A stretch of DNA of 64,000 nt from Betaproteobacteria bacterium. GTDB lineage: Bacteria > Pseudomonadota > Gammaproteobacteria > Burkholderiales > SG8-39. The notes beneath the pieces are model-generated. The model was not told where the DNA came from. It saw only the letters and a list, made by a program, of their open reading frames with translations, and ran no database searches. The position numbers were made by a program, and so were the translations under genes. Where the stretch lies: positions 11,543 to 75,542 of the forward strand of contig VBCM01000097.1 in NCBI GenBank assembly GCA_005883675.1, in the 5' to 3' direction. Shown here piece after piece: positions 1,238 to 61,906 of the stretch (the first letter of the stretch is position 1; each line of letters starts with the position of its first letter).

Positions 1238-2512
1238 CTAGGCGCCTTCCCTGCCCGCCGAGCCGATCGAGAGATCGGCGAGCCCCGAGCGCATCATGTA
1301 CCAGAAGAGCGCCACGCCCGGGAGCGCGATGATCGTGGTGAGCAGGTAGAAGTTGACGTAGCCGATCGCCTCGATCAGCGCGCCAACCGTCGTGCCGGTA
1401 ATGAAGCGCCCGGCGATGCTCGCGAGCGCGGAGAGCAGCGCGTACTGGGTCGCGGTGAAGCGCAGATTGCAAAGCGCTGAGAGATACGCGACCACCGTGA
1501 CGCCGCCCATGCCGCTCGCGAAGTTCTCGAAGCCGATCGCCGCTGCCATGCCGAGGTTCGTATGGCCGGCGGCGGCAAGCGCGGCAAAGCTGAAATTCGA
1601 CACCGCCATCAGCACCAGGCTGATCAGCACCGAGCGCTTCATCCCCAGGCGGGCATAGGCGATGCCGCCGATGAAGATGCCCACCAGCAGCGCCACGAAG
1701 CCGACGCCGACGTCGTAGAACGCGATCTCGTCATTCGTGAAGCCAAGGTCCGCGAAGAGCAGGCGCAACGTCAGGTTCGCGAGCGTGTCGCCGATCTTGA
1801 GGAATTCGACAAGCGGGCTGAAGTAGGCCACGATCGCCGCGAGCGCGCCATGCGACCTGGCCGGTTCCCGGTGCCGCGCGGGCTCGCCCATGACGAGCGC
1901 AACGAGCATCGCCGGCAGGGCGAACGCGGCGCAGGCGACATAGGCCACGGTCCAGCCCGCGCGCTGCGCCAGCACGAGCGCGAGCGCGCCCGCCGCAGCG
2001 GCGCCGATGCGCCAGCCATACTGCGACATGCCCGAGCCGACGCCGAGCTGGCGCGGCGCGAGGAGCTCGATGCGATACGCATCGATGATGATGTCGAAGG
2101 TCGCCCCGGCCACGCCGAGCGCGATCGCAGCGAGCGCCACGACGGAGAGCGCCGAGCCCGGATCGGCGAAGCCGAGAAACGCCACCGCCGCCATGACGAG
2201 CGCGCCAAGCGCCCACAGCCAGCTGCGGCGCTGGCCGAAGCGGCCGATAAATGGCAGCCGCAGGTTGTCGACGATCGGCGCCCAGAGGAACTTGAAGTTG
2301 TAGGCGAGGAAGGTGAGCGCAAAAGCGGTCACCGCGCTCTTGGTGATGCCGTGCTGCGCGAGGCGCGTGGTAAGCGTGGCGCCGATCATGGAGAAGGCGA
2401 AGCCGGAGGAGATGCCGAGAAAGAGCGCCGCGAGCGGCGCCGCCTCGAAGTAGGGCCGCACGCCTGGCGGCAGGCTCAAGCGCCAGTCGCCGCGCTCAGA
2501 GCGCGTGGTCAT
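1238..2512 (-). CDS. ampG: AmpG-family muropeptide MFS permease (possible in-frame loss of one TM helix near 1798)
   Basis: ORF 1238..2629. Internal ATG 2512 gives [10 protein letters not shown]. Family blocks [12 protein letters not shown] and [14 protein letters not shown]. Confidence 0.85.
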
Positions 2513-3269
2513 AGTCGATCGTGAGCGGCGCGTGATCGGAGAAGCGCCGGCGCTTGTAGATCGACTCTCGGACCGCTCTTCCGGCGATGCCCGGCGTGGC
2601 GATCTGGTAATCAAGGCGCCAGCCGACATTCTTGGCCCAGGCCCGGCCGCGGTTGGACCACCAGGTGTACTGGTCGGGCTTGTCGTTCAAACGCCGGAAG
2701 ACGTCGACGAAGCCGATCTCATCGAAGACGCGCGTGAGCCAGGCGCGCTCCTCGGGCAGGAAGCCCGAGTTCTTCTGGTTCGAGCGCCAGTTGCGCAGAT
2801 CGATCTCCTTGTGCGCGATGTTCCAGTCGCCGCACAGGATGATTTCGGAGTTGCGCTCGCGCAGCCGCTTGAGATGCAGAAGGAACTGCTTGAGGAAGCG
2901 GAACTTCGATGCTTGCCGATGGGGCCCGGCCGACCCCGAGGGCAGATAAACGGACACCACCCAGAGTCTGCCGAAGCGCGCCTCGACGTAGCGCCCTTCG
3001 GTGTCGAACTCGCGGCTGGCGAAGCCGCGCCGCACCTCGTCGGGTGTCTTCCGGCTGTAGAGCGCCACGCCGCTGTAGCCCTTCTTCTCGGCGAAGGCGT
3101 GGCAGCTTTCGTAGAGCTTGAGCCCGTGCAGCTTCGCATCGAGGTCGGTCTCGTGGCATTTCAGCTCCTGGAGGCAGACGACGTCCGGCTGCTGCGCGGC
3201 GAGCCAGCGGAACAGTCCCTTCTTTGCCGCCGAGCGTACGCCGTTGACGTTGAGCGTTATTACTCTCAA
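2496..3269 (-). CDS. xth: exodeoxyribonuclease III
   Basis: C-terminal 257 aa of ORF 2496..3914 ([10 protein letters not shown]...[11 protein letters not shown]). TTG 3269 overlaps the out-of-frame pyrE stop (TTGA). Confidence 0.9.
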
Positions 3270-3914
3270 CCGCTGGGAAAAGCCGCCACGCCGCCATGCG
3301 CCGCGGACCATTTCGCCGGCTCGTGCAGGAAGCGCTCGACCTCGGCGATCTGTGCCGCAGCCAGGTAGCGGTCCTTGCAGCCGCACGTTCAGATCGGCAA
3401 GCGTCTGCCTGGCCTCGGGGAAGATGTCGTAGTAGAAGTTGACGAACACGTGCTCGACGACGGCGCCCGCTTCGCGCAGCGCCTGGCAGAAATTGATCTT
3501 CGAGCGCCCGTCGGTAGTGAGGTCCTCCACCAGCAGCGTGCGCGCGCCGGCGCGAATGTCGCCCTCGATCTGGGCGTTGCGGCCAAAGCCCTTGGGCTTT
3601 TTTCTCACATACTGCATCGGCAGGCCGAGGCGATCGGCGAGCCAGGCGGCGTAGGGAATGCCGGCCGTCTCGCCGCCGGCGACCACGTCAAATTGCTCGA
3701 ATCCGGCGTCGCGTGCCAGCGTGACCGCGGCGAAGTCCACGAGCTGCCCGCGGATCCGCGGATAAAAGATGAGCTTGCGGCAGTCGATGTACACCGGGCT
3801 CGCCCAGCCCGAGGTGAAGACGAAGGGCTTCGCCTCGTAGAACAGCACCGCCTTCACTTCCAGCAGCATCCGCGCGGTGATTTCGGCGATGACCGCCTTG
3901 TCGGCAAAGTGCAT
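3266..3914 (-). pseudogene. pyrE: orotate phosphoribosyltransferase, internal loss plus frame change near 3377
   Basis: The N-terminal 179 aa are PyrE (PRPP motif [10 protein letters not shown]). The true C-terminus [29 protein letters not shown] lies in another frame, with TGA at 3266-3268. The 649-nt span is not a multiple of 3. Confidence 0.8.
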
Positions 3915-3969
3915 GTGCGGCGCGGATTTTAGCAGCTACAATCGGCGCATTCGTCTCGGGAGGGACGCG

Positions 3970-4587: not shown

Positions 4588-6620
<2,033 letters not shown>

Positions 6621-6624
<4 letters not shown>

Positions 6625-8081
6625 AGCGGCGTCTCGCGCGGTACGCGCAGATGCCAGTCGGTCGCCTGCTGGTAGCGGTGGGCGATGCCGAGGAGCCGCG
6701 CTTCGGAAAAATAATTGCCGGTGAGCTGCAGCCCGACCGGCAGGCCGGCGGCATCGAAGCCGCAAGGGATCGAGAGCGCGGGAAGCCCCGCGAGCGGCGC
6801 GGAGACGGTAAAGATGTCGTCCAAGTACATCTGCACCGGGTCGTCGACTTTGGCGCCGATCGGGAAAGCCGTCGTGGGCGACGTCGGCCCCATGATGACA
6901 TCGCAGCGCTCGAAGGCCTGGGCGAAATCGCCCGCGATCAGCCGCCGCACTTTCTGCGCCTGGACGTAATAGGCATCGTAGTAGCCGTGCGAGAGCACGT
7001 AGGTGCCCACCAGGATGCGGCGCTTGACCTCGGCGCCGAAGCCTTCGGCGCGCGTGCGGCAATACATGTCGATGAGATCGCGGTACCGGGCGGCGCGGTG
7101 GCCGTAGCGCACGCCGTCGAAGCGCGCGAGATTGGACGATGCCTCCGCCGGCGCGATCACGTAGTACACCGGCACGCCGAGACGGGCATTCGGCAGCTCG
7201 AGCTCGACCCGGCGCGCGCCGCGCGATTCGTACCAGCGCACCGCCTCCTCCACCGCCGCGCGTACGCCGGCATAGATGCCCTCGCCGAAGTACTCGCGCG
7301 GGAGCCCCAAGCGCAGGCCGCGCAGATCGATGTCCAGGGAGCGCGCGTAGTCCTCTTTGGGCCGGTCGAGGCTGGTCGAGTCGCGCGCATCGAACCCGGC
7401 CATCGCGCTCATGAGAAGCGCGAGATCGGCAGCGCTCTTCGCGAGCGGGCCGGCCTGGTCGAGCGAGGAGGCGAACGCGACGATGCCGTAGCGCGACACC
7501 ACGCCGTAGGTGGGCTTCAGGCCCGAGACGCCGCACATGGCAGCGGGCTGGCGCACCGAGCCGCCGGTGTCGGTGCCGGTCGCCGCGGGCACGAGCCGCG
7601 CTGCGACCGCGGCAGCCGAGCCGCCGGAGGAGCCGCCCGGCACGAGGCGCTTGTCCCACGGGTTGCGCACTGCGCCGAAGTGCGACGCTTCGCTTGAGGA
7701 ACCCATGGCGAACTCGTCCATGTTGCATTTGCCGAGGAGCGCCATGCCCGCCCGGGCGAGCTGCTCCACGACATGGGCGTCGTAGGGGCTGACGTAGTCC
7801 GCAAGCATGCGCGAGCCGCAGGTCGTGCGCAGGCTGCGGGTGCAGAAGATGTCCTTGTGGGCGAGCGGAATGCCGGTGAGCGGGCCGGCATCGCCGCGCG
7901 CACGCCGCTCGTCCGCCTGTCGCGCGGCCGCGAGCGCCACCTCCTCGCCGACGCTGATGAAGCTGTTCAGCTCGCGGTCGAGGCGTGCGATACGCTCGAG
8001 GCACAGGCGCGTCAGCTCGACCGAGGAAACCTGCTTGGCCGCGAGCGCGCGCGAGAGCTCGCCGAGCGTGGCGTTGAGCAC
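6621..8081 (-). CDS. gatA: Asp/Glu-tRNA amidotransferase subunit A
   Basis: 486-aa ORF with amidase signature [12 protein letters not shown] and full-length family match. Confidence 0.95.
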
Positions 8082-8082
8082 G

Positions 8083-8370
8083 CTACTCGATCACTTTCGG
8101 CACGAGGTAGAGGCCCTCTTCGACCGCCGGGGCGACCGATTGATAAAGCGCGCGCTGATCGATCTCGCGCGCCTCGTCGGGCCGCAGCCGCTGTGCCGTA
8201 TCGACGGCGTGCGCCATCGGCTCGATGCCGCGCGTGTCGACCGCGCGCATCTCTTCGATCAAGCCGAGCACGCGATTCAGCCGCTCGAGCACCGCCGCCT
8301 CATCGGCAGGCTCGATGGCGATGCGAGCGAGACGCGCAAGGCGTCGCACGTCGTCGGGGGTAAGCGACAT
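8083..8370 (-). CDS. gatC: Asp/Glu-tRNA amidotransferase subunit C
   Basis: Internal ATG 8370 of ORF 8083..8400 ([17 protein letters not shown]...), directly upstream of gatA. Confidence 0.9.
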
Positions 8371-8508
8371 TTCCTTCGGACCAGGGAAGCTCGGGGACAA
8401 TTGCCTTATCGCCCGTAGCGTCGTTAGCGTATCATAGCGGCCATTTCCCGGGACCTTGGCGCGGAGGCTAAGGCCCGATTTAGTAAACGAAAAAGCGGAA
8501 ACTCATAA

Positions 8509-9516
<1,008 letters not shown>

Positions 9517-9526
9517 AGTGTAGGGG

Positions 9527-14159: not shown

Positions 14160-15469
<1,310 letters not shown>

Positions 15470-15473
<4 letters not shown>

Positions 15474-17215
15474 CGAGCGCGGCGCAAGTCGTCCCGCTGC
15501 ACGAGCGACGCTCGAGCCTGCCGCAGGACGTCGCGCGCTGCATTCTCGCGGGCTTCGACAAGCACTATCGCCTGTTCCGCGCGGCGGCGATCAAGGCGAA
15601 GGAGCTCTACGAGCTCGCCGACTGGGCCGAGATGCGCCGCCTCGCGCGCGGGCGCATCCAGATGTACGACCTGCGCGTCGAGGAAGCGGTGCGCGCCCTG
15701 CTCGACCGTTTCCCCGAAGCCGAGGTCGACGAGGCGCTGTGGCCGGCGATCAAGCTGGCGTACATCGGCCTGCTGCACGAGCACCGACAGCCCGAGTGTG
15801 CCGAGACCTTCTACAACTCGGTGGCGTGCGCGGTGTTGCACCGCCGCCACTATCACAATGAGTTCATCTTCTGGCGGCCGGCGGTAGCGACCGAACACCT
15901 CGAGGGCGACACGCCTTCTTACGCCTGCTGCTACCCGCTGGTCGGCGGCCTGCGCCAGACGCTGCTCGACATCGCTAACAGCTTCGCCCTGAAGAACCCG
16001 TGGGAGAACCCGCGGCGCGACCTGCGCAACGTCGTGCACGCGCTGCGCCAGCACTTTCCGCGGCCGGCGCGCGCGCACCCCGACCTGCAGGTACAGGTGC
16101 TGCGCTCGCTGTTTTTCCGCAACAAGGGCGCCTACGTCGTCGGGCGCATCATCAACGGCCACCACGAGGTGCCCTTCGCGGTGCCGATCCTGCAGAACGG
16201 GCGCGGCGAGCTCTACGCCGATACGCTGCTCATGGGCGAGGACCAGCTGCTCGTCCTTTTCTCGTTCGCGCGCGCCTATTTCTTCGTCGACATGGAAGCG
16301 CCCGCGGCGTTCATCTCATTCCTGCGCTGGCTGATGCCCAAGAAGCCGCGCGCCGAGTTGTACATGGCGGTGGGACTGGCGAAGCAGGGCAAGACGCTCT
16401 TCTACCGCGACCTGCACTACCATCTCAAGCATTCCACCGATCGCTTCGCCGCCGCGCCGGGCATCAAGGGCATGGTGATGCTGGTCTTCACGCTGCCCTC
16501 CTTCCCGTACGTCTTCAAGTTGATCCGCGACCGCTTCGCGCCGCCGAAGGAGATCGACCGCGAAACAGTGATGGAGAAGTACCTGATGGTGAAGCTGCAC
16601 GACCGCGTCGGGCGCATGGCCGACACGCTTGAGTATTCGCGCGTGGCGCTGCCGCTCTCCCGTTTCGAACCCGAGCTGCTCGAGGAGCTGAAGGCCGAGT
16701 GCGCCTCGCTCATCGAGTTCGACGGCGAGGAGATCGTGATCGGGCACGTCTATATCGAGCGGCGCATGGAGCCGCTCAACCTGTACGTCGATGACTGCAA
16801 GCGCGCCGGGGATGAGGAGTCGCTGCGTAGCGCGCTGCGCGAGTATGGCCAGGCGATCAAGGAGCTCGCCGGCGCCGGCATCTTCCCCGGCGACATGCTG
16901 CTCAAGAACTTCGGCGTCACGCGGCACGACCGGGTGGTGTTCTACGACTACGACGAGATCCAGCCGATCACGGACGTGCACTTCCTGCGCATCCCAGCGG
17001 CGCGCAGCTACGAGGAGGAGCTCTCAGCCGAGCCCTACTGGCGCGTGGGCGAGCACGACGTCTTCCCGGAGCAATTCGACCACTTCCTCGTCTCGGAGCC
17101 GCGCGCCCGGGAGCTCTTCTACGAGTACCACCGCGATCTCCTCGACCCCGCGTTCTGGCGCGCCAAGCAGGACATCGTGCGCTCGGGCGAGCAGGAAGGA
17201 CGATGCGGTAGATGA
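15470..17215 (+). CDS. aceK: isocitrate dehydrogenase kinase/phosphatase, 3' end aberrant (last ~20 conserved residues replaced by GRCGR)
   Basis: GTG 15470 overlaps the aceA stop (GTGA). Collinear with AceK up to ...[15 protein letters not shown] at about 17197. Confidence 0.9.
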
Positions 17216-18253: not shown

Positions 18254-18981
18254 TCAGTCCCTCGCCAGCTCGTCGCCGAGCTCGCCGCCGCGTTTGGTGG
18301 CTGCCGCCAGCGCGCGGGCGAAGCGTTCGGCGAGCTTCTCCTCGCCGAAGACGCGCAGCGCCGCCTCGGTAGTTCCGCCCTTCGACGTCACACGCGCGCG
18401 GAGCTCCGCCGGCGGCTCGCCGCTTTGGGCGGCGAGCTTCGCGGAGCCGAGCACGGTGTGCGTCGCGAGCCTGAGCGCCTCGGCTTTGCCGATGCCCGCG
18501 CGCTCGGCAAAACCCGCGAGCTGCTCGATGAGCCAGAACACGTAGGCGGGCCCGCTGCCCGAGACCGCAGTGACGGTGTCGAGCAGGCGCTCGTCGGAGA
18601 GCCACACTACCTCCCGACGAGCGCGGGCGTATTGGGCATGCAGCGCACGAGGCTCCGATGACCGCCCAGCCAGCGCGAGAGCGCGGCAAGGGGCAAGCCG
18701 GCGGCGATGCTGATCACCAGCTTGCCGTGTACCGACGCGGCGAGCGAAGCGAGCGCTGCGCGCGCATCCTGCGGCTTGACCGCGAGCACGAACGTATCGG
18801 CCTTGCCGCTGGCAGCGTCCGGCGCCGTGCTGACGCGCACGCCGTGCGCAGCAGCGATGCGGCTGCGCGCTGCCGGGCTGATCTCGATCACCGCGATATC
18901 GCCGGGCGGAAAACCGCGCGCAATGAGGCCGCCGATCAGCGCGTTCGCCATGTTGCCGCCGCCGAGGAAGGCGATGCTCAC
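18254..18981 (-). pseudogene. proC: pyrroline-5-carboxylate reductase, internal loss plus frame change near 18612
   Basis: N-terminal half is in ORF 18607..18981 (IAFLGGGNMA...CMPNTPALVG). C-terminal half is in ORF 18254..19012 (EVVWLSDE...AVSGSGPAYVF...KGGTTE). The 728-nt span is not a multiple of 3. Confidence 0.85.
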
Positions 18982-27301: not shown

Positions 27302-27980
27302 CAGGCAGTGAAGCGACGGCGCGCAAACATGATGGCGATGGCGTAGCCGGCGGCAGCATACGCCAGCAGCACGGCGACGTGCAGCGCGGCCTGCGAAGGC
27401 CAGCGCCCGGCGACCAGCGGGCGCACGAGCTCGAAACGCCGGAGACCATCGTCATCGGCGTCATGATGAGGGTCATGTAGAAGCTGAAGAAGTCCCAGTT
27501 CTTCGCGAGCACCGTCATGATGAGCCCGCATGCGGCGAAGGCGAGGCCGACCAGGAACGCGACGGGCAGCGTAAGCACCACGATCGGCGATGCCGCGAGG
27601 CCAAACACCGCTGCCACGGCGAGGATGGTCGCGCCCGAGAGCCACGCCTTGCTCGCCGCCCACACGATCTCGCCGGCGACGATGTCGTCGATGGTGAGCG
27701 GCGCGTACAGGATCGCGTCCCAAGTCTTCTGCCCATGCATGCGCGAGAACCCCGAAAACATGGACTCGAAGGAGGCCGTGAACATCGTTGCGGAGCAGAG
27801 CGTCCCCGCGGCGAAGAAGGCGATGTAGGACATGCCTTCGACCGAGGGCAGCAGCGCGCCGAGGCCGTAGCCGAGGCCGAAGAGCAGGATGAGGGGGTCG
27901 GCGAGGTTCGACAGCACCGAGGCGATGACGAGCTTGCGCCAGACGAGGAAATTGCGCCGCCAGACCGCGATCCAGCGCAT
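27301..27980 (-). pseudogene. ABC-2 type (NodJ/YadH-like) permease, internal loss plus frame change near 27436
   Basis: The N-terminal 182 aa are in ORF 26586..27980 (ending ...TLIMTPMTMVSGV). The C-terminus FELVRPLVAGRWP...ARRRFTA is in ORF 27301..27723. The 680-nt span is not a multiple of 3. Confidence 0.8.
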
Positions 27981-30869: not shown

Positions 30870-32255
30870 TCAGCGTCGCGCGCCGTGGTGATGAGCCTGC
30901 GCGAGCGGCCGCGGCACGAGCGAGCCCGCCACCATGCCCGCAGCCGAGCAGCCGAGCCCGATGAGCGGCGGCGGCACGGTCGCGTCCGGAGCGGCCAACG
31001 CCGCGATGAGCCAGCCGGCGAGCCCGGCGAGCGAGGAAACGATGGCGCCGGCGTTGTTCGCGCGCTTCCAGAAGATGCCTGCCGCAAGCGGCACGAGCGC
31101 GGCGACCAGCGTCACGGTGTAGGCGTTTTGCACCATGTCGTACATGGTCTGCTTGGAGTTGAGCGCGAAGATGAGCGCCGCAGCCGTAAAGCACACCAGC
31201 ACCAGGCGCAGCGTGAGCAGGAATTGCCGATCACCCATCCGCGGATAAAGCGGGCGGATGATGTTTTCGGTGCAGAGCGAGGTCGGCGCGATGATCGCGC
31301 CGCTCGCGGTGGAGAGGATGGCCGAAAGGAGCGCGCCGAAGAAGAGCACCTTGATCCACATCGGCGTGTGCTCGAGGATGAAGTTGGGCAGGATACGCTG
31401 CATGTCGCGGGCATCCTGCGCCGAAAGCAGCGTGCCGAGGCCCGGATCGACCAGCAGCCCGGCCACCACGATGTAGATCGGCACGAAGACGAAGCAGAAA
31501 TACACCAGGCCGCCGAGCAGGCTGCCGGCGATGGCGACGCGCTCGTTGCGCGCCGAGGTGACGCGCTGGAAGATGTCCTGCTGCGGAATCGAGCCGATCG
31601 CGAGCGTTAAAAAGGCGGTGGTGAACGCGAACCATTCCTTCGTTCCGCCGGTCGGCCAGAACTGGAACTTGCCGCTGTCGGCGGCAGCAGCGACCACCCT
31701 TCCCACGCCGCCCGCCATGTCGCACACTACCATCGCCACGGACCACATGCCGCCCCAGATCGTATAGGCGAGCACCACGACGGCGCTGATGACGATGCCG
31801 GTGGAAAGCGAGATGGCGCCGCCGGTGAGGGTCGAGAACACGAGCCCGAGCGCGGTGAGCTGCGCCGCGGTCCAGCCCAGGTACGAGATGGCGATGATCA
31901 CGCTCGTGCCGAGCTCCATCGTCTTGCCATAGCGCTTTCGATAGAAGTCGCCGATGGTGAGGAGATCCATGCGGTAGAACGCGCGGGCGAAGAGCAGCGC
32001 CACGATCACCAGGCACATCGACGAGCCGAACGGATCGGCGATGATGCCGCCGAGCCCGCTCTTGGAAAATTCCACCGAGACGGAGAGCACGCTCTCGGCG
32101 CCGAACCAGGTGGCGAACACGGTGGCCGTGTTCATATAGAGGGGCAGGCTGCGGCCGGCGACGACGTAGTCCTTCGAGTTATGCACGCGTCGTGCAGCCC
32201 ACAGACCGATCGCGATGGTGACCAGCAGGTAAAGAACCACCGAGGCGATCAGCAT
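30870..32255 (-). CDS. sodium:solute symporter (SSS) family transporter with a probable in-frame internal loss near 31730
   Basis: ATG 32255 inside ORF 30870..32657 (MLIASVVLYLLV...). GGMWSVAM is joined directly to VVCDMAGG. Confidence 0.85.
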   Translation of the reverse strand: MLIASVVLYLLVTIAIGLWAARRVHNSKDYVVAGRSLPLYMNTATVFATWFGAESVLSVSVEFSKSGLGGIIADPFGSSMCLVIVALLFARAFYRMDLLTIGDFYRKRYGKTMELGTSVIIAISYLGWTAAQLTALGLVFSTLTGGAISLSTGIVISAVVVLAYTIWGGMWSVAMVVCDMAGGVGRVVAAAADSGKFQFWPTGGTKEWFAFTTAFLTLAIGSIPQQDIFQRVTSARNERVAIAGSLLGGLVYFCFVFVPIYIVVAGLLVDPGLGTLLSAQDARDMQRILPNFILEHTPMWIKVLFFGALLSAILSTASGAIIAPTSLCTENIIRPLYPRMGDRQFLLTLRLVLVCFTAAALIFALNSKQTMYDMVQNAYTVTLVAALVPLAAGIFWKRANNAGAIVSSLAGLAGWLIAALAAPDATVPPPLIGLGCSAAGMVAGSLVPRPLAQAHHHGARR

Positions 32256-32265: not shown

Positions 32266-32814
32266 TCATAGCCGCCGCTTCCACACCTGCCAACGCTCCT
32301 TGCCCTGGAACACTTGGAGCGATTGCGCCGCGGGCCGGTCCTCGACGCGCTCAAAGCGGTCGAGCAATAGCGCCAGGAACTCCGGCGCGATGCCGAACGG
32401 CGGGCCGCGCCGGTTATCGTCGAAGTAGAAGAACCCGGCGAGGACAGCGCCGCCGCGCACGAGCTCGGCGATGCGCCGCGCCCAGCGCGAGCGCTCGCAG
32501 ACCAGATCGAAAGGCGGAGCATCCAGGGTAAAGAAGTCCGCCTTGCTGACGCGCCCTGCAAGCTCACCGAGCGTACGCCGCGCCATTTGGATGGCGGCGT
32601 CGAAGAAATCGATGCCAAGCACATCGTCGCCTTGTTCGGCGAAGGCGCGCACTTCATAGCCGGAGCCGCAACCAGGCACCAGCACGCGCCGTCCGGGCGT
32701 TTCTCCCTGGAGCCAGCGCGCGAGCTTCGGCGGCACGCGGCCCGCGTCCCACGGCGTCACGCCGTCGCGGTACCGCGTATGCCAGAACTCAGGCTTGGAG
32801 GAGTCCGATGCCAA
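32266..32814 (-). CDS. TPMT-like SAM-dependent methyltransferase
   Basis: TTG start. [25 protein letters not shown], and GPPFG. Confidence 0.75.
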
Positions 32815-44783: not shown

Positions 44784-45326
44784 GCTCGAGAGCGTCGATC
44801 AGGAGGCCTGCGAGCCGCTCGCCGACTTCGGCGGGCGTTCCGGGCATGCCGAGGTCGCGGGTTTGCGTGACGGCGAGGCCGGGATAGCCGCAGGGGTCGT
44901 GCCCCGCATTACCCGTATGCCGAGCGCCGCCACCTTGGCCCCCTCCACATAGACTCCCGGCGCGCCGGGCCGGCGCGCGGCACGGCCGCCGATGAGGTCG
45001 ATCACCACCTGCTCGAGCAGGCGCACGAACTCGCGCACCTTGATGCCGCGGCGGCCGAGATCGACGAGCGTGTAGAGCACCACCTGGCCCGGACCGTGGT
45101 AGGTGATTTCGCCGCCGCGGTCGGCCGCGATCACCGGGATGCGATTCGCGACGCGCACCGGCGCGGCGCCTTGGCCCAGCGTGTAGACCGGTGGATGCTC
45201 GAGCAGCCACAGCTCATCGGCCGTCGCCTCATCGCGGCTGCGAGTGAAACCGCGCATCGCTTCGAGCGTCCGCAGATAGTCGACGCGCCCCAGGCGCCGC
45301 ACGACGATGTCGTCGACGACGGTCAC
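44776..45326 (-). pseudogene. lipB: octanoyltransferase LipB, internal loss plus frame change near 44901
   Basis: N-terminal part is in ORF 44799..45326 (DRGGEITYHGPGQ...AALGIRVMRG). C-terminus PCGYPGLAVTQTRDLG... is in ORF 44776..45210. The 551-nt span is not a multiple of 3. Confidence 0.85.
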
Positions 45327-45595
45327 AGGACCATCACCACGGCGGGGTGGTCGCAGAGCTCCTGGTAGAGCGCGTCGAGCTGCTCCCGCGAAGTCGCGCG
45401 CACCACGCAGGTCACGCTGAGATAGCGGCCCTGCCGGCTCGGCCGCATGCCAACGGAGGCAACATCGAAGTCAGGGGCGTGCTTGAGCACGATGTCGGTG
45501 ACTGCCTGCGCGAAGCCGGGCTGCTTGCGTCCCATCACCTTGATCGGAAAGTCGCAGGGAAATGCCAGCGGCGAAGGATCGGGAACCACGGGCAT
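45323..45595 (-). CDS. ybeD: YbeD/DUF493 family protein
   Basis: 90 aa with FPCDFPIKVMG. Conserved position upstream of lipB. Confidence 0.85.
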   Translation of the reverse strand: MPVVPDPSPLAFPCDFPIKVMGRKQPGFAQAVTDIVLKHAPDFDVASVGMRPSRQGRYLSVTCVVRATSREQLDALYQELCDHPAVVMVL

Positions 45596-45607
45596 CGGCG
45601 GAACACC

Positions 45608-46442
45608 CTATGCGGAAACGCGCTCCCGGCGCCCGGCGCGCATCACCTGCTGCTTGAAATCCTGATACAGGCGGTACATGCGCCGGAAGACGGGCCCGGG
45701 CCGGGCGTCGCCGACCGGCCGGCCGTCGAGCTGCACGATGGCGAGCACCTCTTTCGACGAGGAGCTGACCCAGAGCTCATCGGCGCCGCGCACCTCGGCT
45801 TGCGTGATTTCGCGAAACTCGAGCGGCAGGGCATGGGCGCGCGCCAGCTCGACGATCACATCGTAGGTAATGCCCGGCAGGATGAGCTCGTTTTTCGGCG
45901 GTGACTGGATCACGCCGCCCTTGACGATGAACACATTGGAGGCCGAGGCCTCGGTGAGCTTGCCATCGCGAAAGAGGATCGTTTCCACTGCGTCCGCTTC
46001 AGCCGAGAGCTGCCGCAAGAGCACGTTGCCGATAAGCGAGATGGATTTGATGTCGCAACGCAGCCAGCGGTTGTCGTGCGCCGTAATAGCCGCGGCGCCG
46101 CTCTCCACCTGCGCGCTTGGCGGCGGCACGAGCGGATTGGACATTATGAACACCGTGGGCTCGGCGTGCTTCGGGAAGGCGTGGTCGCGCTTCGCTACGC
46201 CGCGCGTCACCTGGAAGTACACCGCCTGGTCCTCGGGTGTATGGATTGCGGATGCCGACGGCGGCGAGGCTGCGCTCGAGGCGTGCGAGGTGCTCCTCCA
46301 GCCGGAAGGGCACCTTCGAATACACTGGCACGACCTCGTAGACACCGTCGCCGAAAATGAAGCCGCGGTCGAGGACCGGGACCTTTGCCTCCGAGAGGGG
46401 CAGGAATGCCCCGTTCAGAAAAACGGTTGCTACTTGATCCAC
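45608..46442 (-). pseudogene. dat: D-amino-acid (class IV) aminotransferase, internal loss plus frame change near 46235
   Basis: N-terminal part is in ORF 45999..46442 (DRGFIFGDGVYEV...GIRNPYT). The rest is in ORF 45608..46345 (EDQAVYFQVTRGVAKRDHAFP...). The 835-nt span is not a multiple of 3. Confidence 0.8.
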
Positions 46443-47566: not shown

Positions 47567-47582
47567 TCCGAAAAGGCGCGGA

Positions 47583-49369: not shown

Positions 49370-49371
49370 GC

Positions 49372-51194: not shown

Positions 51195-51698
51195 GTCCCG
51201 CTTCGTCCTGCAGCCTCGCGTAGTCGAGACCGAGAAGCTCCATCGCCTTGGACAGGCGCTCCTCTGCCGGGACGAGAGCTCCTGCTCGAGTTGCCCGGGC
51301 GACCAGCCGGCGTAGCCGAGCGTGACGAGCATGCGCTTGGGGCCTTGCCCGCGCCCGACGGCTTCCAGGATGTCTTTCGACGTGGTGAGGCCGATCACTT
51401 GGCGTACCGGCAGCGTCGACTGCCAGTTGCCCACCGGCGCGTGCAGCACGAAGCCGCGATCGGTCTGCACCGGGCCGCCGTAGTAGATCGGCGCATCGGA
51501 AAACGCGCTGTCGGAGAGCTGCAGCGAGAGCCGCTCGAAAAGCGACGAGAGCGTCAGGTCGATCGGCCGATTCACCACCAGGCCGAGCGCGCCCTGGTCG
51601 TTGTGCTCGCAGATGTAAGTGAGCGTCCTCGCGAAGTGCGGATCGGCCATGTTCGGCATGGCGATCAGGAAGTGATGCGTCAGGTTGATCGAGGACAT
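51187..51698 (-). pseudogene. yqgE: YqgE/AlgH family protein, internal loss plus frame change near 51273
   Basis: [15 protein letters not shown]...[15 protein letters not shown], then the true C-terminus [27 protein letters not shown] in another frame (TGA 51187). The 512-nt span is not a multiple of 3. Confidence 0.8.
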
Positions 51699-51724
51699 GC
51701 GCCCGTGCGGCGCATTTTACCGCA

Positions 51725-51910
51725 TCAGATCTCCACCATTTCGAAGTCTTCCTTGCGCGCGCCGCATTCCGGGCAGGTCCAGTTCATCGGCACGTCTTCC
51801 CAGCGCGTGCCCGGCGCGAGGCCTTCGTCCGGCAGACCGGCAGCCTCATCGTAGACGAAGCCGCAGATGAGACACATCCACGTCTTGTATGCGACTTGAT
51901 TTTCGGTCAT
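51725..51910 (-). CDS. rubredoxin
   Basis: 61 aa with two CxxCG knuckles (CLICGFVYD and CPECGARK). Confidence 0.9.
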   Translation of the reverse strand: MTENQVAYKTWMCLICGFVYDEAAGLPDEGLAPGTRWEDVPMNWTCPECGARKEDFEMVEI

Positions 51911-51932
51911 AGAAGGGGTCGGATATTAACTC

Positions 51933-52724
51933 ATGTCGATGTCCGCGCCGCCGGCGCCGCCGATGGTCCTTACGTTCGCTGCATCCGATCCCACGGGTGG
52001 CGCGGGCCTGCAGGCGGATCTGCTCACGCTCGCGGCGCTCGGCTGCCATCCGCTCTCGGTCCTGACGGCGCTCACGGCGCAGGACACGAGTGGCATCGCG
52101 CGCATGCTGGCGCTAGAGCCGGCCTGGATCACGGAGCAGGCGCGCCGCGTGCTCGACGACATCGCGGTCGCCGCGTTCAAGGCGGGCGTGCTCGGCTCGG
52201 CGGCCAATGTGCGCGCCGCGAGCGAGATCGTCGCGGCGCATGCCGAGGCTGCATTCGTGGTCGATCCGGTGCTCGCGAGCGGACGCGGCGATCGCCTCGC
52301 CGATGAAGACACGATCGAAGCGCTGTGCGAATCGATTCTGCCGCGCACGACGGTGCTGACGCCAAACAGCATCGAGGCGCGGCGGCTTGCCGGCAAGCGC
52401 GATCTCGCCGCCTGCGGACGGGCGCTCGCCGATCACGGCTGCGAATACGTGCTCATCACCGGTACACACGAAGAGGGCGCCGAGGTAGTGAATACGCTCT
52501 ACGATGAAAGCGGCGTGGTGCGCGAGGACCGCTGGCCGCGACTGCCGCAGAACTACCACGGCTCGGGCTGCACGCTCGCCTCGGCGATTGCCGCGTATCT
52601 CGCGCACGGCCTCGAGCCGGCGCAGGCGGTAGGCGAGGCGCAGCGCTTCACATGGCAGGCGCTCGCGGCTGGTTTCGCCGCGGGCGGCGGGCAGTGGCTC
52701 CCCAATCGCTTCTACGGACGATGA
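51933..52724 (+). CDS. thiD: hydroxymethylpyrimidine/phosphomethylpyrimidine kinase
   Basis: SDPTGGAGLQAD and HGSGCTLASAIAA. Confidence 0.85.
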   Translation: MSMSAPPAPPMVLTFAASDPTGGAGLQADLLTLAALGCHPLSVLTALTAQDTSGIARMLALEPAWITEQARRVLDDIAVAAFKAGVLGSAANVRAASEIVAAHAEAAFVVDPVLASGRGDRLADEDTIEALCESILPRTTVLTPNSIEARRLAGKRDLAACGRALADHGCEYVLITGTHEEGAEVVNTLYDESGVVREDRWPRLPQNYHGSGCTLASAIAAYLAHGLEPAQAVGEAQRFTWQALAAGFAAGGGQWLPNRFYGR

Positions 52725-53308
52725 AGCTGCGCGGGCTCTACGCGATCACTCCGCAGGCGAGCGATCTCGAGCGCAAGGTGCGGCTTGCGCTCGAAGGCGG
52801 CATCGCGCTGCTCCAATACCGAAGTAAGAGCCGCGATCGCGCGCAAGCTGCTGCGGTCGTGCGCATGGCGCGCGACTATGGCGTACCGGTGATCGTCAAC
52901 GACGATGTGGAGCTTGCGCTCGAGCTCGACGCCGCGGGCGCGCACCTTGGGCGCGAGGACGGTGACCTGCGTAGCGCGCGCAGGCGTCTCGCTGGTCGCA
53001 TATTGGGCGCCTCCTGCTATAACCAGCTCGAGCGTGCGCGCGCCGCCGTGCGGGCAGGCGCCGATTACCTCGCTTTCGGCGCCGTATTCGCCTCGCCCAC
53101 CAAGCCCGCGGCGGTGCGCGCGCCGCTCGAGCTCTTTCGCGACGCAAGGCCGCTCGGCGTGCCGCTCGCCGCGATCGGCGGCATCACGCTGGAGAACGCG
53201 CCGCAGCTCATCGCCGCCGGCGCCGATCTCCTCGCCGTGATCTCGGATCTCTTCGACGCGCCAGACATCTGCGCGCGAGCGCGCGCCTATGGCAAGCTCT
53301 TCGCATGA
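52721..53308 (+). CDS. thiE: thiamine-phosphate synthase
   Basis: ATG 52721 overlaps the thiD stop (ATGA). [15 protein letters not shown] and AIGGI. Confidence 0.85.
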
Positions 53309-54582
53309 AGAATGAAACGCTGTATGAGCGCGCGCAGCGCGTCATCCCCGGCGGCGTGAATTCCCCGGTGCGTGCCTTTCGCGCCGTTGGCGGCACGCCG
53401 CGCTTCTTCCAACGCGCAGCCGGCGCGCATCTGTGGGATGCGGAAGGCCGCCGCTACATCGACTACGTCGGTTCATGGGGGCCGATGTTGCTCGGCCACA
53501 CGCACCCCGCGGTGGTGGCCGCGGTCGAGGCAGCCGCGGCGCGAGCGCTTTCCTACGGCGCACCCACCGCCGAGGAGACGCTCCTTGCGGAGCGACTCTG
53601 CGAGCTCGTGCCTTCGATCGAGCGCGTGCGCCTTGTCTCCTCGGGCACGGAGGCGACCATGACCGCGATTCGCCTCGCGCGCGGCTTCACCGGACGCAAT
53701 GTCATCGTCAAGTTCGAAGGCTGCTACCACGGGCATGCCGACGCGCTACTCGTCAAGGCGGGCTCCGGCGCGCTTACGTTCGGCCATCCGAGCTCGGCCG
53801 GCGTACCCGCGGAGACGGCGGCGCACACCCTGGTCCTCGCCTACAACGATGTCGACGCCGTGCGCGGCGCGTTCGAGCGTCAGGGGGCGCAAATCGCGGG
53901 CCTTATCGTCGAGCCGGTTGCCGGCAACATGAACCTGGTACTGCCCGCTGCGGGCTTCCTCGAAGCGCTGCGCGAGCAGTGCACTCGATGTGGCGCGGTG
54001 CTCATATTCGATGAGGTCATGACCGGTTTTCGCGTCGCGCTCGGCGGCGCGCAGGCGCGCTACGGCATACGACCGGATCTCACCACGCTCGGCAAGGTCA
54101 TCGGCGGCGGCCTGCCGCTCGCCGCCGTTGGCGGCCGGCGCGAGATCATGGAAAAGCTCGCGCCACTGGGGCCCGTTTACCAGGCGGGCACGCTTTCAGG
54201 AAATCCGCTCGCCGTAGCGGCGGGCCTCGCGACGCTGCAGCTTGTGGCGCAGCCGCGGCTCCTGGAGCGCATCGAGGCAACCACGCGCTCGCTCGCCGAG
54301 GGCCTGACGGTGGAGGCGCGCAAGGCGAGCGTAGCGTTTTGCGCGCAGTCGATCGGCAGCATGTTCGGCGTGTATTTCCGCGCCACACCGCCGCAAAGCT
54401 ACGCCGACGTGATGCAGTGCGACCGCGAGCGTTTCACTCGCTTCTTCCACGCGATGCTCGATGCAGGCATTTATCTCGCGCCGTCGGCGTATGAAACGGG
54501 TTTCGTATCTGCCGCGCACGGCGAGGCGGAAATCGAGGCGACGGTCGCGGCGGCAGGCGCCGCTTTCAGCCAGCTTCGCTGA
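53305..54582 (+). CDS. hemL: glutamate-1-semialdehyde 2,1-aminomutase
   Basis: 425 aa. [19 protein letters not shown], and TLGKVIGGG (PLP lysine). Confidence 0.95.
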
Positions 54583-54627
54583 GCGAAACAAACTTCGCCT
54601 GCCGTATCCGGTCCAACGGGTACGAAG

Positions 54628-55221
54628 ATGCACGTACCCATCGGGGAGCTTTCGCGCGCCGAGCGTTCGGCGCTCAAGCAACACTTTCGCGCGCTCGGAT
54701 CGCACGATCGCCGGCTGCGTTTCGGCGCGCCGCTCAGCGACCATGCGGTGCGCGCATACGTCGAGCGCATCGATTTCGAGCACCACGCGGTGTTTGGCGT
54801 GTTTGACGAAGGACTCGAGCTCCTCGGCGTGGCGCATGTAGCGCGCGGTGATGGCCATGCCGAGCTCGGCGTCTCCGTGCTCGAGGCCCATCGCGGGCGG
54901 GGCATCGGCGGCGCGCTGCTGGCACGTGCGCATATCCGCGCACGCAACTGGGGCGTGAAGGCGCTTTTCATGCATTGCCTCATCGAGAACGCGGCGATGA
55001 TGCGCCTCGCGCGGCGCCAGAACATGGAGCTCGTCGCGCAAGCGGGTGAGGCCGACGCCTGGCTCAGTCTGTCGCCGGCCGATGCGGCGAGCCATTTCGG
55101 CGAGGTGTTCGCGCAGCGCGTGGCGCTCTTCGATTACACGCTCAAGTCCCAGGTCGCGACCGCACGCCGCCTCGCCGCGGCGCTCACACCAGGAACAGCG
55201 TCGCCAGGCCCAGGAAAATGA
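54628..55221 (+). CDS. GNAT family N-acetyltransferase
   Basis: 197 aa with acetyl-CoA loop HRGRGIGGALL. Confidence 0.75.
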   Translation: MHVPIGELSRAERSALKQHFRALGSHDRRLRFGAPLSDHAVRAYVERIDFEHHAVFGVFDEGLELLGVAHVARGDGHAELGVSVLEAHRGRGIGGALLARAHIRARNWGVKALFMHCLIENAAMMRLARRQNMELVAQAGEADAWLSLSPADAASHFGEVFAQRVALFDYTLKSQVATARRLAAALTPGTASPGPGK

Positions 55222-56554
55222 AGAAGCCGCCGGAGTCGGTGCAGGCGGTGATGAGCACGGAGGAGCCGACGGCCGGGTCGCGACCGAAACGCGATCGCAA
55301 CCATGGGATGGCGACGCCCATGACGGCGGCGAGCACCAGCGTGAGCACCATGGCGAGCGCCATGACGCCGCCGAGCGCGACGTTGCCATAGAGGGTGTAG
55401 GCGACGGCGCCGAGCAGGCAACCCCAGATGACGCCGTTCAGCAGCGCCAGCCCGATCTCCTTCCTGAGGAGCGCCCTCCAGTAGCCGCCCTGAATCTGCC
55501 CGAGAGCGAGCGCCCGTACGATCATGGTGATTGTCTGGTTGCCGGAATTGCCGCCGACCCCGGCGACGATCGGCATCAGGGCGGCGAGCGCGACCAGTCG
55601 CTCGATCGAGCCCTCGAAGAGCCCGATCACGCGCGAGGCGATGAACGCGGTGACGAGGTTGATGGCGAGCCAGGCCCAGCGGTTCTTGAAGCTCTCGAGC
55701 ACCGGGGCGAAGACGTCCTCTTCCTCGCGCAGTCCCGCTTCGGCGAGACGCGATTCGGCGTTGCGCTGGCGAATGTAGTCGACGAGCGCGTTGACGGTCA
55801 GCCGGCCAATCAGCGTGTCGTTCGCATCGACCACGGGCGCGGAGACGAGGTCGTAGCGCTCGAAGGCGCTCGCCGCATCCTCAGCGGAGTCCTGCGCATA
55901 GAACTTCATGCTGTCGCGAACCATGACGCCTGCCACCCCGAGGTGCAGATCGGACACGATGAGGCGTGCGAGCGGCAGGCTGCCCTTCAGGCGCTGGACG
56001 CGGTCGACGACGAAGAGCTGGTCGGTGTGGTCGGGCAGCTCGTCGAGCCGCCGCAGGAAGCGCGTTGCCGCTTCCAGGGTCACATCCTCGCGCACCGCCA
56101 CGTGGTCGAAATCCATGAGCGAGCCGACCGAGCCCTCGGGGTAGGAGAGCGCCGCACGCAGCCGCTCGCGCTCTTGCGCCGGCAGCGACTGCACCACGTC
56201 CTCCATGACCGCCGGCGGCAGGTCGGCGGCGATATCGGCGAGCTCATCGGCCTGCAGCGTCTCGGCGGCAGCGACGAGCTCGGCGGAGTCCATGCTCGCG
56301 ATGAGCGACTCGCGCACCGCCTCGGACACCTCGAGCAGGATCTCGCCGTCGCGATCGGCCTTGACGAGGTTCCACACGGCGAGCCGCTCCTCGAGCGGCA
56401 GCGCCTCGAGGATGTAGGCGATGTCCGCCGCGTGCAGTGCATCGAGCCTAGCGCGGAGCGCGCTGCTGCGCTCCGGCTTTGCGAGCAGCACCTGGATTTC
56501 ACGCAGGCTTTGCTGCAGGTCGTCGACTTCGAGCCGCGCGAGCGCTTCGGCCAT
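55184..56554 (-). CDS. mgtE: magnesium transporter MgtE
   Basis: 456 aa. MgtE N-domain, CBS pair, and membrane domain (PIVAGVGGNSGNQ). Confidence 0.95.
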   Translation of the reverse strand: MAEALARLEVDDLQQSLREIQVLLAKPERSSALRARLDALHAADIAYILEALPLEERLAVWNLVKADRDGEILLEVSEAVRESLIASMDSAELVAAAETLQADELADIAADLPPAVMEDVVQSLPAQERERLRAALSYPEGSVGSLMDFDHVAVREDVTLEAATRFLRRLDELPDHTDQLFVVDRVQRLKGSLPLARLIVSDLHLGVAGVMVRDSMKFYAQDSAEDAASAFERYDLVSAPVVDANDTLIGRLTVNALVDYIRQRNAESRLAEAGLREEEDVFAPVLESFKNRWAWLAINLVTAFIASRVIGLFEGSIERLVALAALMPIVAGVGGNSGNQTITMIVRALALGQIQGGYWRALLRKEIGLALLNGVIWGCLLGAVAYTLYGNVALGGVMALAMVLTLVLAAVMGVAIPWLRSRFGRDPAVGSSVLITACTDSGGFFIFLGLATLFLV

Positions 56555-56566
56555 GCGCGAAGCGTA

Positions 56567-57295
56567 TCAGGGGATCTGCACCGCTCCCATGCGAGCAAGG
56601 ATGGTGGAGAGGCGCGCGGCAAGGTAAGGGGTCAGGCGGCCGCGCTCATAGCGGTGCGGCGTCGGCAGGATGACGGCGAGCCAGGCCGCCTGCTCCGCAG
56701 TAAGCGCAGCCGCCGGCACGCCGAAGTGATAGCGTGCCGCCGCCTCTGCACCGAACACGCCCTCGCCCCACTCCGCATAGTTGAGATAAAGCTCGAGGAT
56801 GCGGCGCTTCGACAGCGCGTCCTCCAGCATCCACGTGATGAGCGCCTCCTCGCCTTTGCGCAACCAGGAGCGCTCGGCCGAAAGGAACAGGTTCTTGGCG
56901 AGCTGCTGGCTGATGGTCGAAGCGCCGGCGACAATGCGGCCGCGCTCCTCGTTGCGCGCGATCGCCTTCTGGATCATCTCCCAGTCGAAACCTTCGTGGT
57001 CGAGAAAGCGCGCATCTTCGGCAGCGACCACGGCGCGCTTCAGGTTCGCCGAAATGCGCTCATACGGCACCCATTGGTGCCTGAGGCGCGCCTGCGGGTC
57101 CTTCGCCTGGAGCGCCTCGAGGCTGCGCTCCATGAACGCGGTGTTTGCCGGCGGGAAGCGCCTCCAGTAGACGATATGGCCGTAGAACCAGAGCTGCGAG
57201 ACGACGAAAGCGAGGACCAGAGCGCTCAGCGTGTAGCTGAAGGCCTTCCACGCGATGACGAGCGCGCGCAGCGCGCCCTGGCGCCTACCCCGCAC
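56567..57295 (-). CDS. mtgA: monofunctional peptidoglycan glycosyltransferase
   Basis: EDARFLDHEG and GASTISQQLAKN. Confidence 0.9.
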   Translation of the reverse strand: MRGRRQGALRALVIAWKAFSYTLSALVLAFVVSQLWFYGHIVYWRRFPPANTAFMERSLEALQAKDPQARLRHQWVPYERISANLKRAVVAAEDARFLDHEGFDWEMIQKAIARNEERGRIVAGASTISQQLAKNLFLSAERSWLRKGEEALITWMLEDALSKRRILELYLNYAEWGEGVFGAEAAARYHFGVPAAALTAEQAAWLAVILPTPHRYERGRLTPYLAARLSTILARMGAVQIP

Positions 57296-57315
57296 GCTTG
57301 GTCACGGCGCGCCAG

Positions 57316-58124
57316 TCACTCGGTCCAGAGCTTGTCGCCCTGGCCGAAGAACCAGGTGCGCGTGATGACGAGGAGATCCGTGTCTCGCCGGATGGCGGGC
57401 GGGAACACGGCGAAGGGCCCCGCCATGCGCACGATCTTGAAAGCGGCGGCGTCGAGCACCTTGAGCCCGGAGGAGCGGTCGAGCTCGACAGAATCGACGC
57501 TGCCGTCCGCCCGGATCGTGACCGTGAGCCGCAGGGTGCCATAGAGCTTGCCGCGCGCCTCCGCGGGATAGTTCAGCGTTCCGATGCGCTCGACTTTGGC
57601 GCGCCAGTCCTCCTCGTACTGCGCAAAGCGATATTCCGCGGCGTTGGCGCCGATGAATTTCTTGCGCGGGCGCTTCTGGTAGTCGTCGATCTGCCTGTCG
57701 ATCTGCGCCTGCAGGCGCATCGCGGCAAGCGCCAGATCGGCGAGATCCCGCCCGCTCGGCTGCGGCGCGATGTCTTCTGCCGGCGCAGCATGCGGCCGCG
57801 GCTGCGCCCGCCCGCTTTCGGCCGCCCGCGCGAGCGCGAGAAGCTCCTGCTGCCGCGCTTCCAGCTCGCGAACACGCCGCTCGGTCGCGGCCAGGTCGCG
57901 TCCGGGCTGCGGCGGATTGGTCACCGGCAGCGGCGAGCGCGCCCGGCGCTCCTCGTCCACCGTACCGCCGCGATCCAGATTCGCTTGCGCCAGCACCTCG
58001 GCGCGCGCCGGTCGCTCGTGGCTCTTGGCGTTGACCAGCACGACCTCGAGACGCTGATCGGCGAGGTGCCGAGCGCCATGGCGAGCACCCGATCGTTGCC
58101 GGCCGGGATCCACAACCAACTCAT
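57316..58124 (-). pseudogene. TonB C-terminal-domain protein, 5' region disrupted (frame change, N-terminal TM anchor missing)
   Basis: ATG 58124 with AAGAAGG upstream opens frame MSWLWIPAGNDRVLAMALG.... The conserved body (LEVVLVNAKS...TonB-C) is in ORF 57316..58119. The 809-nt span is not a multiple of 3. Confidence 0.7.
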
Positions 58125-58161
58125 GTGCCTTCTTATTTCAGTTGGACAAGCCCTTCATAGT

Positions 58162-60048: not shown

Positions 60049-60049
60049 G

Positions 60050-60604
60050 TCAATAACCTGCGAAGCGCAGGATTTCCGCCAGGTGTTCAGGAAAGCTGCG
60101 CAGGCTGTGATCGCCGCCCGCGATCACACGCTGTGCAGCGCCGGCGTAGCGTTCTACGGCGCGGCGGTAATCCAGCACCTCGTCGCCCGTTTCTACGAGG
60201 AGCAGATAACGCTGCGGCGTAACCCGCGGCACGTAGAGCTCGCGCCATTGAGCGAGGTGGGAACTCGTGAGCACATAGGACTCGCCGGTATAGAGGTTCT
60301 TCTGCGGCCCGAGGTAAGCGCTTAGTCCGACATGCGGCTCGATCGCCGGATTGATCAGCACCGCCTTTCCGCCCTGCGTCTCTACCAGGTAAGTGGCGTA
60401 AAAGCCGCCCAATGACGACCCGACATAGCAAGCCGGTTCCTCGCCTATTGCGTTCCTTATCAGCCGCACGGCATCACGCGGCGAAGGCGGCAGCGCGGGG
60501 CAGATGAATTCCCGGTCGAGACCGCGCTCCGTCATATATTGCTCCAGCAGCTGCGCCTTGTGCGATTGCGGCGAGGAATTGAATCCGTGGAGGTAAACGA
60601 TCAA
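60050..60604 (-). CDS. yqiA: YqiA/YcfP-family esterase
   Basis: MIVYLHGFNSSPQS, GSSLGG and GGDH. Confidence 0.8.
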   Translation of the reverse strand: MIVYLHGFNSSPQSHKAQLLEQYMTERGLDREFICPALPPSPRDAVRLIRNAIGEEPACYVGSSLGGFYATYLVETQGGKAVLINPAIEPHVGLSAYLGPQKNLYTGESYVLTSSHLAQWRELYVPRVTPQRYLLLVETGDEVLDYRRAVERYAGAAQRVIAGGDHSLRSFPEHLAEILRFAGY

Positions 60605-61906
60605 GCCGCGGCGGCGCTTTGCAGGCGCTCGAGGAGCTTCGTCTGGATGCCGCCGAAGCCGCCATTGGACATGATGAGCACGCTGTCGCCCGGGCGCGCG
60701 TCTGCGGCGATCGCCCGTACCAACGTATCAAGGTCATCGAGGCATCGGGCCCGGCTGCCAAGCGGCGCGAACACGCTCGCCGCATCCCAGCCGAGCGCCG
60801 CGTTATAGACATAAACGCGGTCGGCAAGGGCGAGGCTGGCCACAAGCGCATCCTTCATGACACCGCGCTTCATGGTGTTGGACCGAGGTTCCAGCACGGC
60901 GAGGATGCGGCCCTGCCCTACCCGTTCGCGCAACCCTTGCAACGTCACCCGGATCGCGGTCGGGTGGTGAGCGAAATCGTCGTAGACGTTGACGCCACCG
61001 GACTGGCCGCGCAGTTGCAGCCGCCGCCGCACCCCCGAAAAGCGCCCTAGCGCCTCCATGGCCTGCGCTGGCGTGACCCCCACGTGCCTCGCCGCCGCCT
61101 TGTGCTTCACCGGACAGTCGCACTTCAAAGCTGCCGTCCGCTGCGGGTGCCGCCGCCTCCCAACCGTCTGCCGCGCCCAAGCGCTCGACCGGGGTCCAAG
61201 TCCCCTTAGCTAGCACTCGCTCCAAAGCTTCATCAGCATCATTTACGATGAGCAGACCGGTGCGCGGGACGGTGCGCACGAAGTGGTGAAATTGCCGCTC
61301 GATCGCGGCAAGATCGTCGAAGATGTCGGCATGATCGAACTCCAAGTTGTTCAGGATCGCTGTGCGAGCGCCGTAGTGAACGAACTTCGAGCGCTTGTCG
61401 AAGAATGCGGTGTCGTATTCGTCCGCTTCGATTACGAAGAGCGGGCCGCCGGTATGGCGAGCCGAGGCCGGAAAATCGAGCGGAACGCCGCCAATCAGAA
61501 ACCCGGGCGATCGCCCGGCGCACTCGAGGATCCAAGCCAGCATCGCCGAAACCGTGGTTTTGCCATGGGTGCCGGCCACGGCGAGTACGTGGCGCCCGGC
61601 GAGCACATGCTGTGCGAGCCACTGGGGCCCCGAGACATACTGCTCGCCCCGGTCGAGGATCGCCTCCATGAGCGGGTTACCCCGCGTGACCACATTGCCG
61701 ATCAGCCAAAGGTCAGGCCGCAGTGCGACCTGCTCCTCGCCGAAGCCCTCGATCAGCTTGATGCCGAGCCCGGCAAGCTGCTCGCTCATCGGCGGGTAGA
61801 CGTTAGCGTCGCAGCCGGTCACACGGTAGCCGGCGGCGCTCGCGATGGCGGCAATGCCGCCCATGAAAGTGCCGCAAATACCGAGGATGTGCAGGTGCTT
61901 GGCCAT
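60601..61906 (-). pseudogene. mpl: UDP-N-acetylmuramate:L-Ala-gamma-D-Glu-meso-DAP ligase (Mpl), internal loss plus frame change near 61102
   Basis: N-terminal part is in ORF 60803..61906 (HILGICGTFMGG...AGTHGKTT...FEVRLSGEA). C-terminal part is in ORF 60601..61128 (AAARHVGV...YDDFAHHPTAI). The 1306-nt span is not a multiple of 3. Confidence 0.85.

Follow-up and report, generated by a model that had tools for sequence, protein, structure and literature searches.

Short pieces of conserved housekeeping genes appear to be missing from a 64,000-nucleotide (nt) stretch of contig VBCM01000097.1 of a Betaproteobacteria bacterium (assembly GCA_005883675.1, positions 11,543 to 75,542; this whole stretch is called the window here), which raises the question whether mreB, gatB, proC, pyrE, lipB, mpl and further genes were damaged in the organism or only in its assembled sequence. 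The comparison with near-identical metagenome contigs makes it highly probable that the losses are unmarked joins between separately assembled contigs and not biological deletions. The organism itself almost certainly carries these and the other affected genes in an intact form. The window consists of contigs strung together in syntenic order, with the inter-contig sequence absent.

The window does not contain a single N, has a guanine-cytosine (GC) content of 67% and shows a betaproteobacterial gene order, i.e., gatCAB, mreBCD-mrdA-rodA, aceA-aceK, pilT/pilU, ubiB, polA, lipA/lipB, pyrB/pyrC and mpl. The top match of its GatA in a one-genome-per-species collection has 79% identity and falls into Burkholderiales metagenome-assembled genomes (MAGs). 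Relatives of the window were gathered by exact-protein look-up with GatA, YggT, DUF493, an ABC ATPase, RodA, MgtE, PilT and a 215-amino-acid (aa) open reading frame (ORF), which yielded over 50 metagenome contigs (ENA, JGI and Logan) together with one NCBI MAG (GCA_005881875.1). These contigs, labelled L081 and so forth, were compared with the window by blastn. The majority are 99–100% identical to it, a more distant sister species being represented by L087 and L093 (88% identical), and every base of the window is tiled by relatives at an identity of at least 97% and a median depth of seven. The scaffolds L081, L099, L110 and L119, which apparently originate from the same sample (one ENA assembly labelled BioSample SAMN08902865), match the window at 99.6–100% identity.

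The blastn alignments of the relatives to the window are interrupted at exactly 13 places, and at each of these the relatives contain extra sequence (Table 1). Per site 41–113 nt are absent from the window, 817 nt in total, and at all 13 sites the absent piece is present in N-free contigs that are 99–100% identical to the window. Tiling by the relatives of at least 97% identity revealed no additional junction across the whole window, and the indels inside the aligned segments are only 1-nt or strain-private ones. All 13 primary sites named in a sequence-only reading of the window are real, and their coordinates were right to within 1–3 nt; alignment to the orthologues of the relatives shows the gap at every site and the shorter form in no relative. 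Fifteen genes are affected and eight of them are frameshifted. Each of the eight gene spans that had been listed as no multiple of three equals the length of the intact gene minus the missing piece. Two weaker candidates, at ~32490 and ~34618, turned out to contain no gap, as the N-free contig L097 (99.1% identical) has no indel at either position. The TPMT gene located at 32266–32814 is shorter than its Pfam model (173 residues versus 215 profile positions), and two close relatives have versions of this gene that encode 175 and 185 aa.

The consequences for the encoded proteins are directly visible. The piece absent from mreB encodes the conserved residues RESAIGAGAGQVYLIEE, the junction as written in the window reads ...GCGCGATCC immediately followed by CGATGGCC..., and the alignment of the window MreB with the solved MreB structures in the PDB breaks at query residue 128. 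In tblastn searches PyrE is split into residues 1–179 and 194–229, which lie in different frames. In the relatives aceK encodes 601 aa and its convergent neighbour 107 aa.

After re-insertion of the missing pieces, all 15 genes are full-length, are read in one frame without gaps and encode proteins with 97.6–100% identity to those of the relatives. The gene remnants in the window are 99–100% identical to the intact alleles and carry neither extra stops nor secondary lesions. The missing lengths are divisible by three at 4 of the 13 sites, which is the chance expectation and shows no frame bias. Moreover, microhomology at the junctions amounts to 0–2 nt at all 13 sites, as chance gives, the missing pieces are not bordered by direct repeats, and k-mers shared among the 13 junctions do not go beyond the null; the earlier statement that no motif or repeat is common to the junctions is borne out by this comparison. 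The GC content of the missing pieces (0.57–0.77) matches the background. None of the 13 losses is shared by any of the more than 50 related contigs, the 88%-identical sister species included.

Furthermore, contig ends or gaps of other assemblies are found at 7 of the 13 junctions, and six of these agree to within 1–2 bases. Five N runs occur there in L081, L099, L110 and L119, four of which end at the base that opens a block of the window (1798, 5990, 31730 and 51272). In L081, the right edge of a 30-N run coincides with the ampG junction (1798) and a 10-N run ends exactly at the gatB junction (5990). A 24-N run in L099 has its right edge at the SSS junction (31730), and L119 contains 48 of the 49 missing nt of yqgE followed by 25 N, which end at 51272. 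At the mreB junction, both L081 and the k141 contig L084 terminate exactly at 8905, and at the TonB-like junction L119 begins at 58061 and the JGI contig L123 at 58063. Two MEGAHIT contigs of the assembly ERZ28012436 correspond one-to-one to blocks of the window: L084 equals window 5991–8905, ending 13 nt beyond the third junction, and L120 equals window 51273–58063, overhanging 48 nt (yqgE) and 31 nt (TonB-like gene) into the missing pieces. L099 additionally has a private N-free loss of 52 nt that overlaps the ABC-2 permease junction (27433). As a rough estimate, the chance of one such coincidence is ~0.001 per feature. The view taken in the sequence-only reading, that simultaneous inactivation of these genes is implausible and that unresolved scaffold gaps without gap characters may be responsible, is supported by the intact near-identical contigs, by the contig ends and N runs at the junctions and by the repair of the 15 genes.

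Table 1. Junctions in the window, the sequence absent at each of them, and private N-free losses in other records at places where the window is intact.
Feature	Window position	Gene or ORF (strand)	Absent sequence	Records carrying the sequence, or position in the record with the loss	Intact length minus missing piece (nt)
Junction 1	1798..1799	ampG (-), about 1238-2512	45 nt (15 codons), in frame	L082 (99.6% identical, no N)	
Junction 2	3375..3377 (3376)	pyrE (-)	41 nt, frameshift	L081 (100% identical) and L082	690 - 41 = 649
Junction 3	5990..5991	239-aa ORF and gatB (-)	113 nt: last 22 codons of the 239-aa ORF and first 8 codons of gatB	L082, L083, L107, L108	
Junction 4	8904..8905	mreB (+), 8524-9516	51 nt (17 conserved residues), in frame	L082, L083, L085, L107, L109	
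Junction 5	17198..17199	overlapping convergent 3' ends of aceK (+) and 107-aa ORF (-)	75 nt	L115, L127, L128, L130	
Junction 6	18613..18614	proC (-)	85 nt, frameshift	L127-L130, L135; only 46 nt in L086/L131, with their own 39-nt loss there	813 - 85 = 728
Junction 7	27432..27434	ABC-2 permease (-)	70 nt, frameshift	ten relatives (L097, L098, L100-L106 and others)	750 - 70 = 680
Junction 8	31730..31731	SSS (sodium:solute) transporter (-), 30870-32255	54 nt (18 codons), in frame	L097, L098, L100, L101, L104, L105	
Junction 9	44899..44900	lipB (-)	58 nt, frameshift	L088, L089, L091, L094-L096 and the 88%-identical species (L087, L093)	609 - 58 = 551
Junction 10	46233..46235 (46234)	dat, class IV aminotransferase (-)	50 nt, frameshift	nine relatives, among them same-sample L119 and NCBI MAG contig L092	885 - 50 = 835
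Junction 11	51272..51273	yqgE/DUF179 (-)	49 nt, frameshift	eight N-free relatives	561 - 49 = 512
Junction 12	58061..58063 (58062)	TonB-like gene (-)	67 nt, frameshift	L117, L118, L121, L122	876 - 67 = 809
Junction 13	61096..61098 (61097)	mpl (-)	59 nt, frameshift	L118 (99.7% identical, no N), with a 454-aa Mpl containing all three Mur-ligase domains	1365 - 59 = 1306
Loss in L092 (NCBI GCA_005881875.1)	42077-42165		87 nt	L092 13489/13490	
Loss in L097	about 22106-22172		68 nt	L097 16786	
Loss in L114	11558-11590		31 nt	L114 3079/3080	
Loss in L119	54593-54682		88 nt	L119 3380/3381	
Loss in L086 (JGI)	directly adjoining junction 6	proC	39 nt	L086 about 4924-4925	

The joins may have arisen in the following way. 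A number of 13–14 contigs of one low-coverage soil betaproteobacterial population (a Burkholderiales-like MAG) would have been assembled separately, breaking presumably where read coverage or k-mer support is thin and strain micro-diversity is high. Paired reads could then have placed the contigs in the correct order and orientation, and each loss would represent the 41–113 nt between two contig ends that were left unmarked. N-free joins might be produced along two routes, either by a scaffolder or gap closer that butt-joins or wrongly closes gaps estimated at zero or less, or by N runs being stripped afterwards from the record or from the window. The joins fall inside genes because most of the genome is coding, and most of the affected genes look frameshifted because a gap of random length preserves the frame in only about one third of cases. 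We infer that the samples belong to the grassland-meadow soil dataset, which comprises IDBA_UD assemblies with ~10x coverage per sample and a very high within-population diversity (Crits-Christoph et al., 2020; PMC7305173). Two candidate properties of the missing pieces were considered and rejected. Coverage dropout at GC-rich or hairpin-forming sequence is not supported, as the pieces, taken with 40-nt flanks, equal the background in GC content and in folding energy. Nor is there support for pieces that are shared with co-occurring species and, as inter-genome repeats, break the assembly graph: in the three testable pieces the 99% strain and the 88% species are identical to a degree that is at or only slightly above the regional mean, and their exact-match runs of 23–44 nt are not extreme.

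Several observations weigh against an origin of all 13 junctions by unmarked joining. The same-sample scaffolds run through pyrE (L081) and dat (L119) without interruption, and these two breaks would have to be specific to the window's own assembly. At proC, aceK, lipB and mpl the same-sample contigs are uninformative, and the mpl site is covered by one relative only (L118). The gaps of the window (41–113 nt) are narrower in range than the N-marked gaps of the sibling scaffolds (6–302 nt). An exact look-up did not find the truncated 330-aa MreB on record, a look-up with the 184-aa esterase likewise gave no match, and the 40-mer spanning the mreB junction is absent from the JGI metagenome contigs. 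Finally, a mosaic with switches of strain identity at the junctions, as suggested by the identities of the BLAST segments, was not confirmed: switches amount to 2 of 62 at the junctions versus 85 of 2338 at the controls, for which 400 random positions were used, and are thus not enriched. The block 44900–46235 with 98% identity is explained by one divergent patch of 110 nt (45590–45698), and in the base-level alignment the identity switches of L110 and L113 are located ~100 nt or more away from the mreB junction.

The same class of error is found in other records of the population, which have N-free losses of their own at places that are complete in the window (L092, L097, L114, L119 and L086; Table 1), showing that this artefact is widespread in the dataset. 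These records bear on how the joins lost their gap characters. One possibility considered was editing after assembly, either by removal of the N runs with trimming next to them during preparation of the record or of the window, or by deliberate excision of segments. The absence of any N from the window would fit such editing, as would the fact that sibling scaffolds are N-marked at four of its junctions, where both the N run and 6–85 nt of real flanking sequence are missing from the window. However, N-free losses of similar size occur in public records as deposited, so post-hoc stripping is not required, and purely random edits would not fall on the contig ends of other assemblies. Editing is a variant of the artefact explanation, and its share of the high probability given to that explanation, within which it is counted, is a minor one: we consider it possible but rather unlikely.

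A true loss of 41–113 nt from each of the 15 genes in a decaying or deletion-prone lineage, as the sequence-only reading had also suggested, is in contrast very improbable. The sequence as given does show the losses without any gap character, and two independent assemblies have N-free losses that differ from those of the window but lie at its proC (L086) and ABC-2 permease (L099) junctions, which could hint at deletion-prone sites. Decaying genomes such as those of Mycobacterium leprae and of recently host-restricted symbionts do contain many housekeeping genes with frameshifting deletions. They also gather point mutations, stops and insertion sequence elements, and their lesions are common to relatives. 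The window differs from them in both respects: its remnants and the flanks of the junctions are 99.6–100% identical to intact alleles of the population, apparently same-sample contigs included, are free of additional stops or substitutions and give perfect ORFs upon re-insertion, and no loss recurs in any relative, not even in the sister species. The lack of a frame bias among the lengths contradicts decay as well, and the junctions meet contig ends and N runs of other assemblies to the base. Moreover, 13 losses in 64 kb would by extrapolation mean several hundred per genome, normally essential genes included. A narrower form of this idea, in which some sites are real deletion hot spots of the soil population and the window captured minority deletion alleles that coexist with intact ones, for example in relic extracellular DNA or a defective subpopulation, has its basis in the differing N-free losses of the window and L086 at proC and of the window and L099 at the ABC-2 permease; we regard it as having only a very slight chance of being correct. 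Collapse of repeats, in which the assembler fuses two short direct repeat copies and omits what lies between them, often causes small deletions in assemblies and is one sense in which the earlier suggestion of a collapsed assembly can be taken. Here it is hardly credible, as no junction shows a border repeat or microhomology beyond 0–2 nt. Unmarked joining of separately assembled contigs is the explanation preferred here.

Some of the affected loci show further features. The 239-aa ORF located between gatA and gatB (window 5974–6624, minus strand; intact in L082 at 2636–3355) is conserved, has no Pfam match and, as judged by eye, begins with an apparent signal peptide. Near-identical contigs in which this stretch is unbroken contain it; its start overlaps the gatA stop and its end lies 2 nt before gatB. 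Two artificial fusion ORFs are present on the minus strand, one of 472 aa at window 2496–3914, consisting of the pyrE remnant and the region upstream of xthA/xthA, and a 1138-aa open frame at window 4588–8004 that runs into gatB. To the left of window ~8800, the gatC/mreB-upstream parts of two independent contigs, L110 (1–1134, ENA) and L113 (1–1369, JGI), are only 79–80% identical to the window and are joined to downstream sequence of 99.85% identity; either a recombinant strain really exists, or the assembly repeatedly formed the same chimera with a co-occurring species.

About 40 nt to the left of the ABC-2 permease junction, window 27378–27418 diverges as a variant from the nine relatives that have no loss at this place, and has the look of a contig end with low support or from an alternative strain. 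The patch at window 45590–45698, covering the 3' end of dat, the intergenic region and the start of the DUF493 gene, has ~20 differences over ~110 nt to all nine covering relatives, and the flanks of these relatives are 99.6–100% identical to the window. Recombination with another strain over a short tract is one possible origin of this patch, a locally chimeric sequence another. At window 54659–54684, a GNAT acetyltransferase gene shows an in-frame length polymorphism of 36 nt (185 versus 197 aa), which is probably a real allele difference and not an assembly error, because it is common to several independent contigs (L117, L121, L124).

Regarding known error types, long-read assemblies suffer from indels of 1–2 nt at homopolymers, which also create false pseudogenes; the losses of the window are different, as they are blocks of 41–113 nt at short-read contig boundaries. 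Scaffolding gaps and local assembly errors in MAGs were reported as one source of the protein-coding sequences that stand in public databases in an incomplete or wrong form (Chen et al., 2020, Genome Res; PMC7111523). The window resembles the errors described there in that short stretches are lost or unsupported at short-read contig joins, leading to truncated or frameshifted gene calls, in that the populations are of low coverage and strain-diverse, and in that the same sites are problematic in several assemblies. Unlike the N-marked gaps, the unsupported consensus and the N runs despite overlap reported in that study, the joins of the window carry no N, and zero-length joins across real gaps are not specifically described in it.

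The losses have no biological significance; they are an ordinary artefact, and their value lies in the caution they suggest regarding false pseudogenes. Standard quality checks cannot see a join that carries no gap characters. With about one join per 5 kb, as in the window, several hundred false pseudogenes or chimeric ORFs would result per genome if this rate is extrapolated, and a gene caller could report the pyrE-xthA and gatB fusion ORFs as novel fusion proteins. Protein databases and pseudogene counts can take up such errors, as can completeness estimates and metabolic reconstructions.

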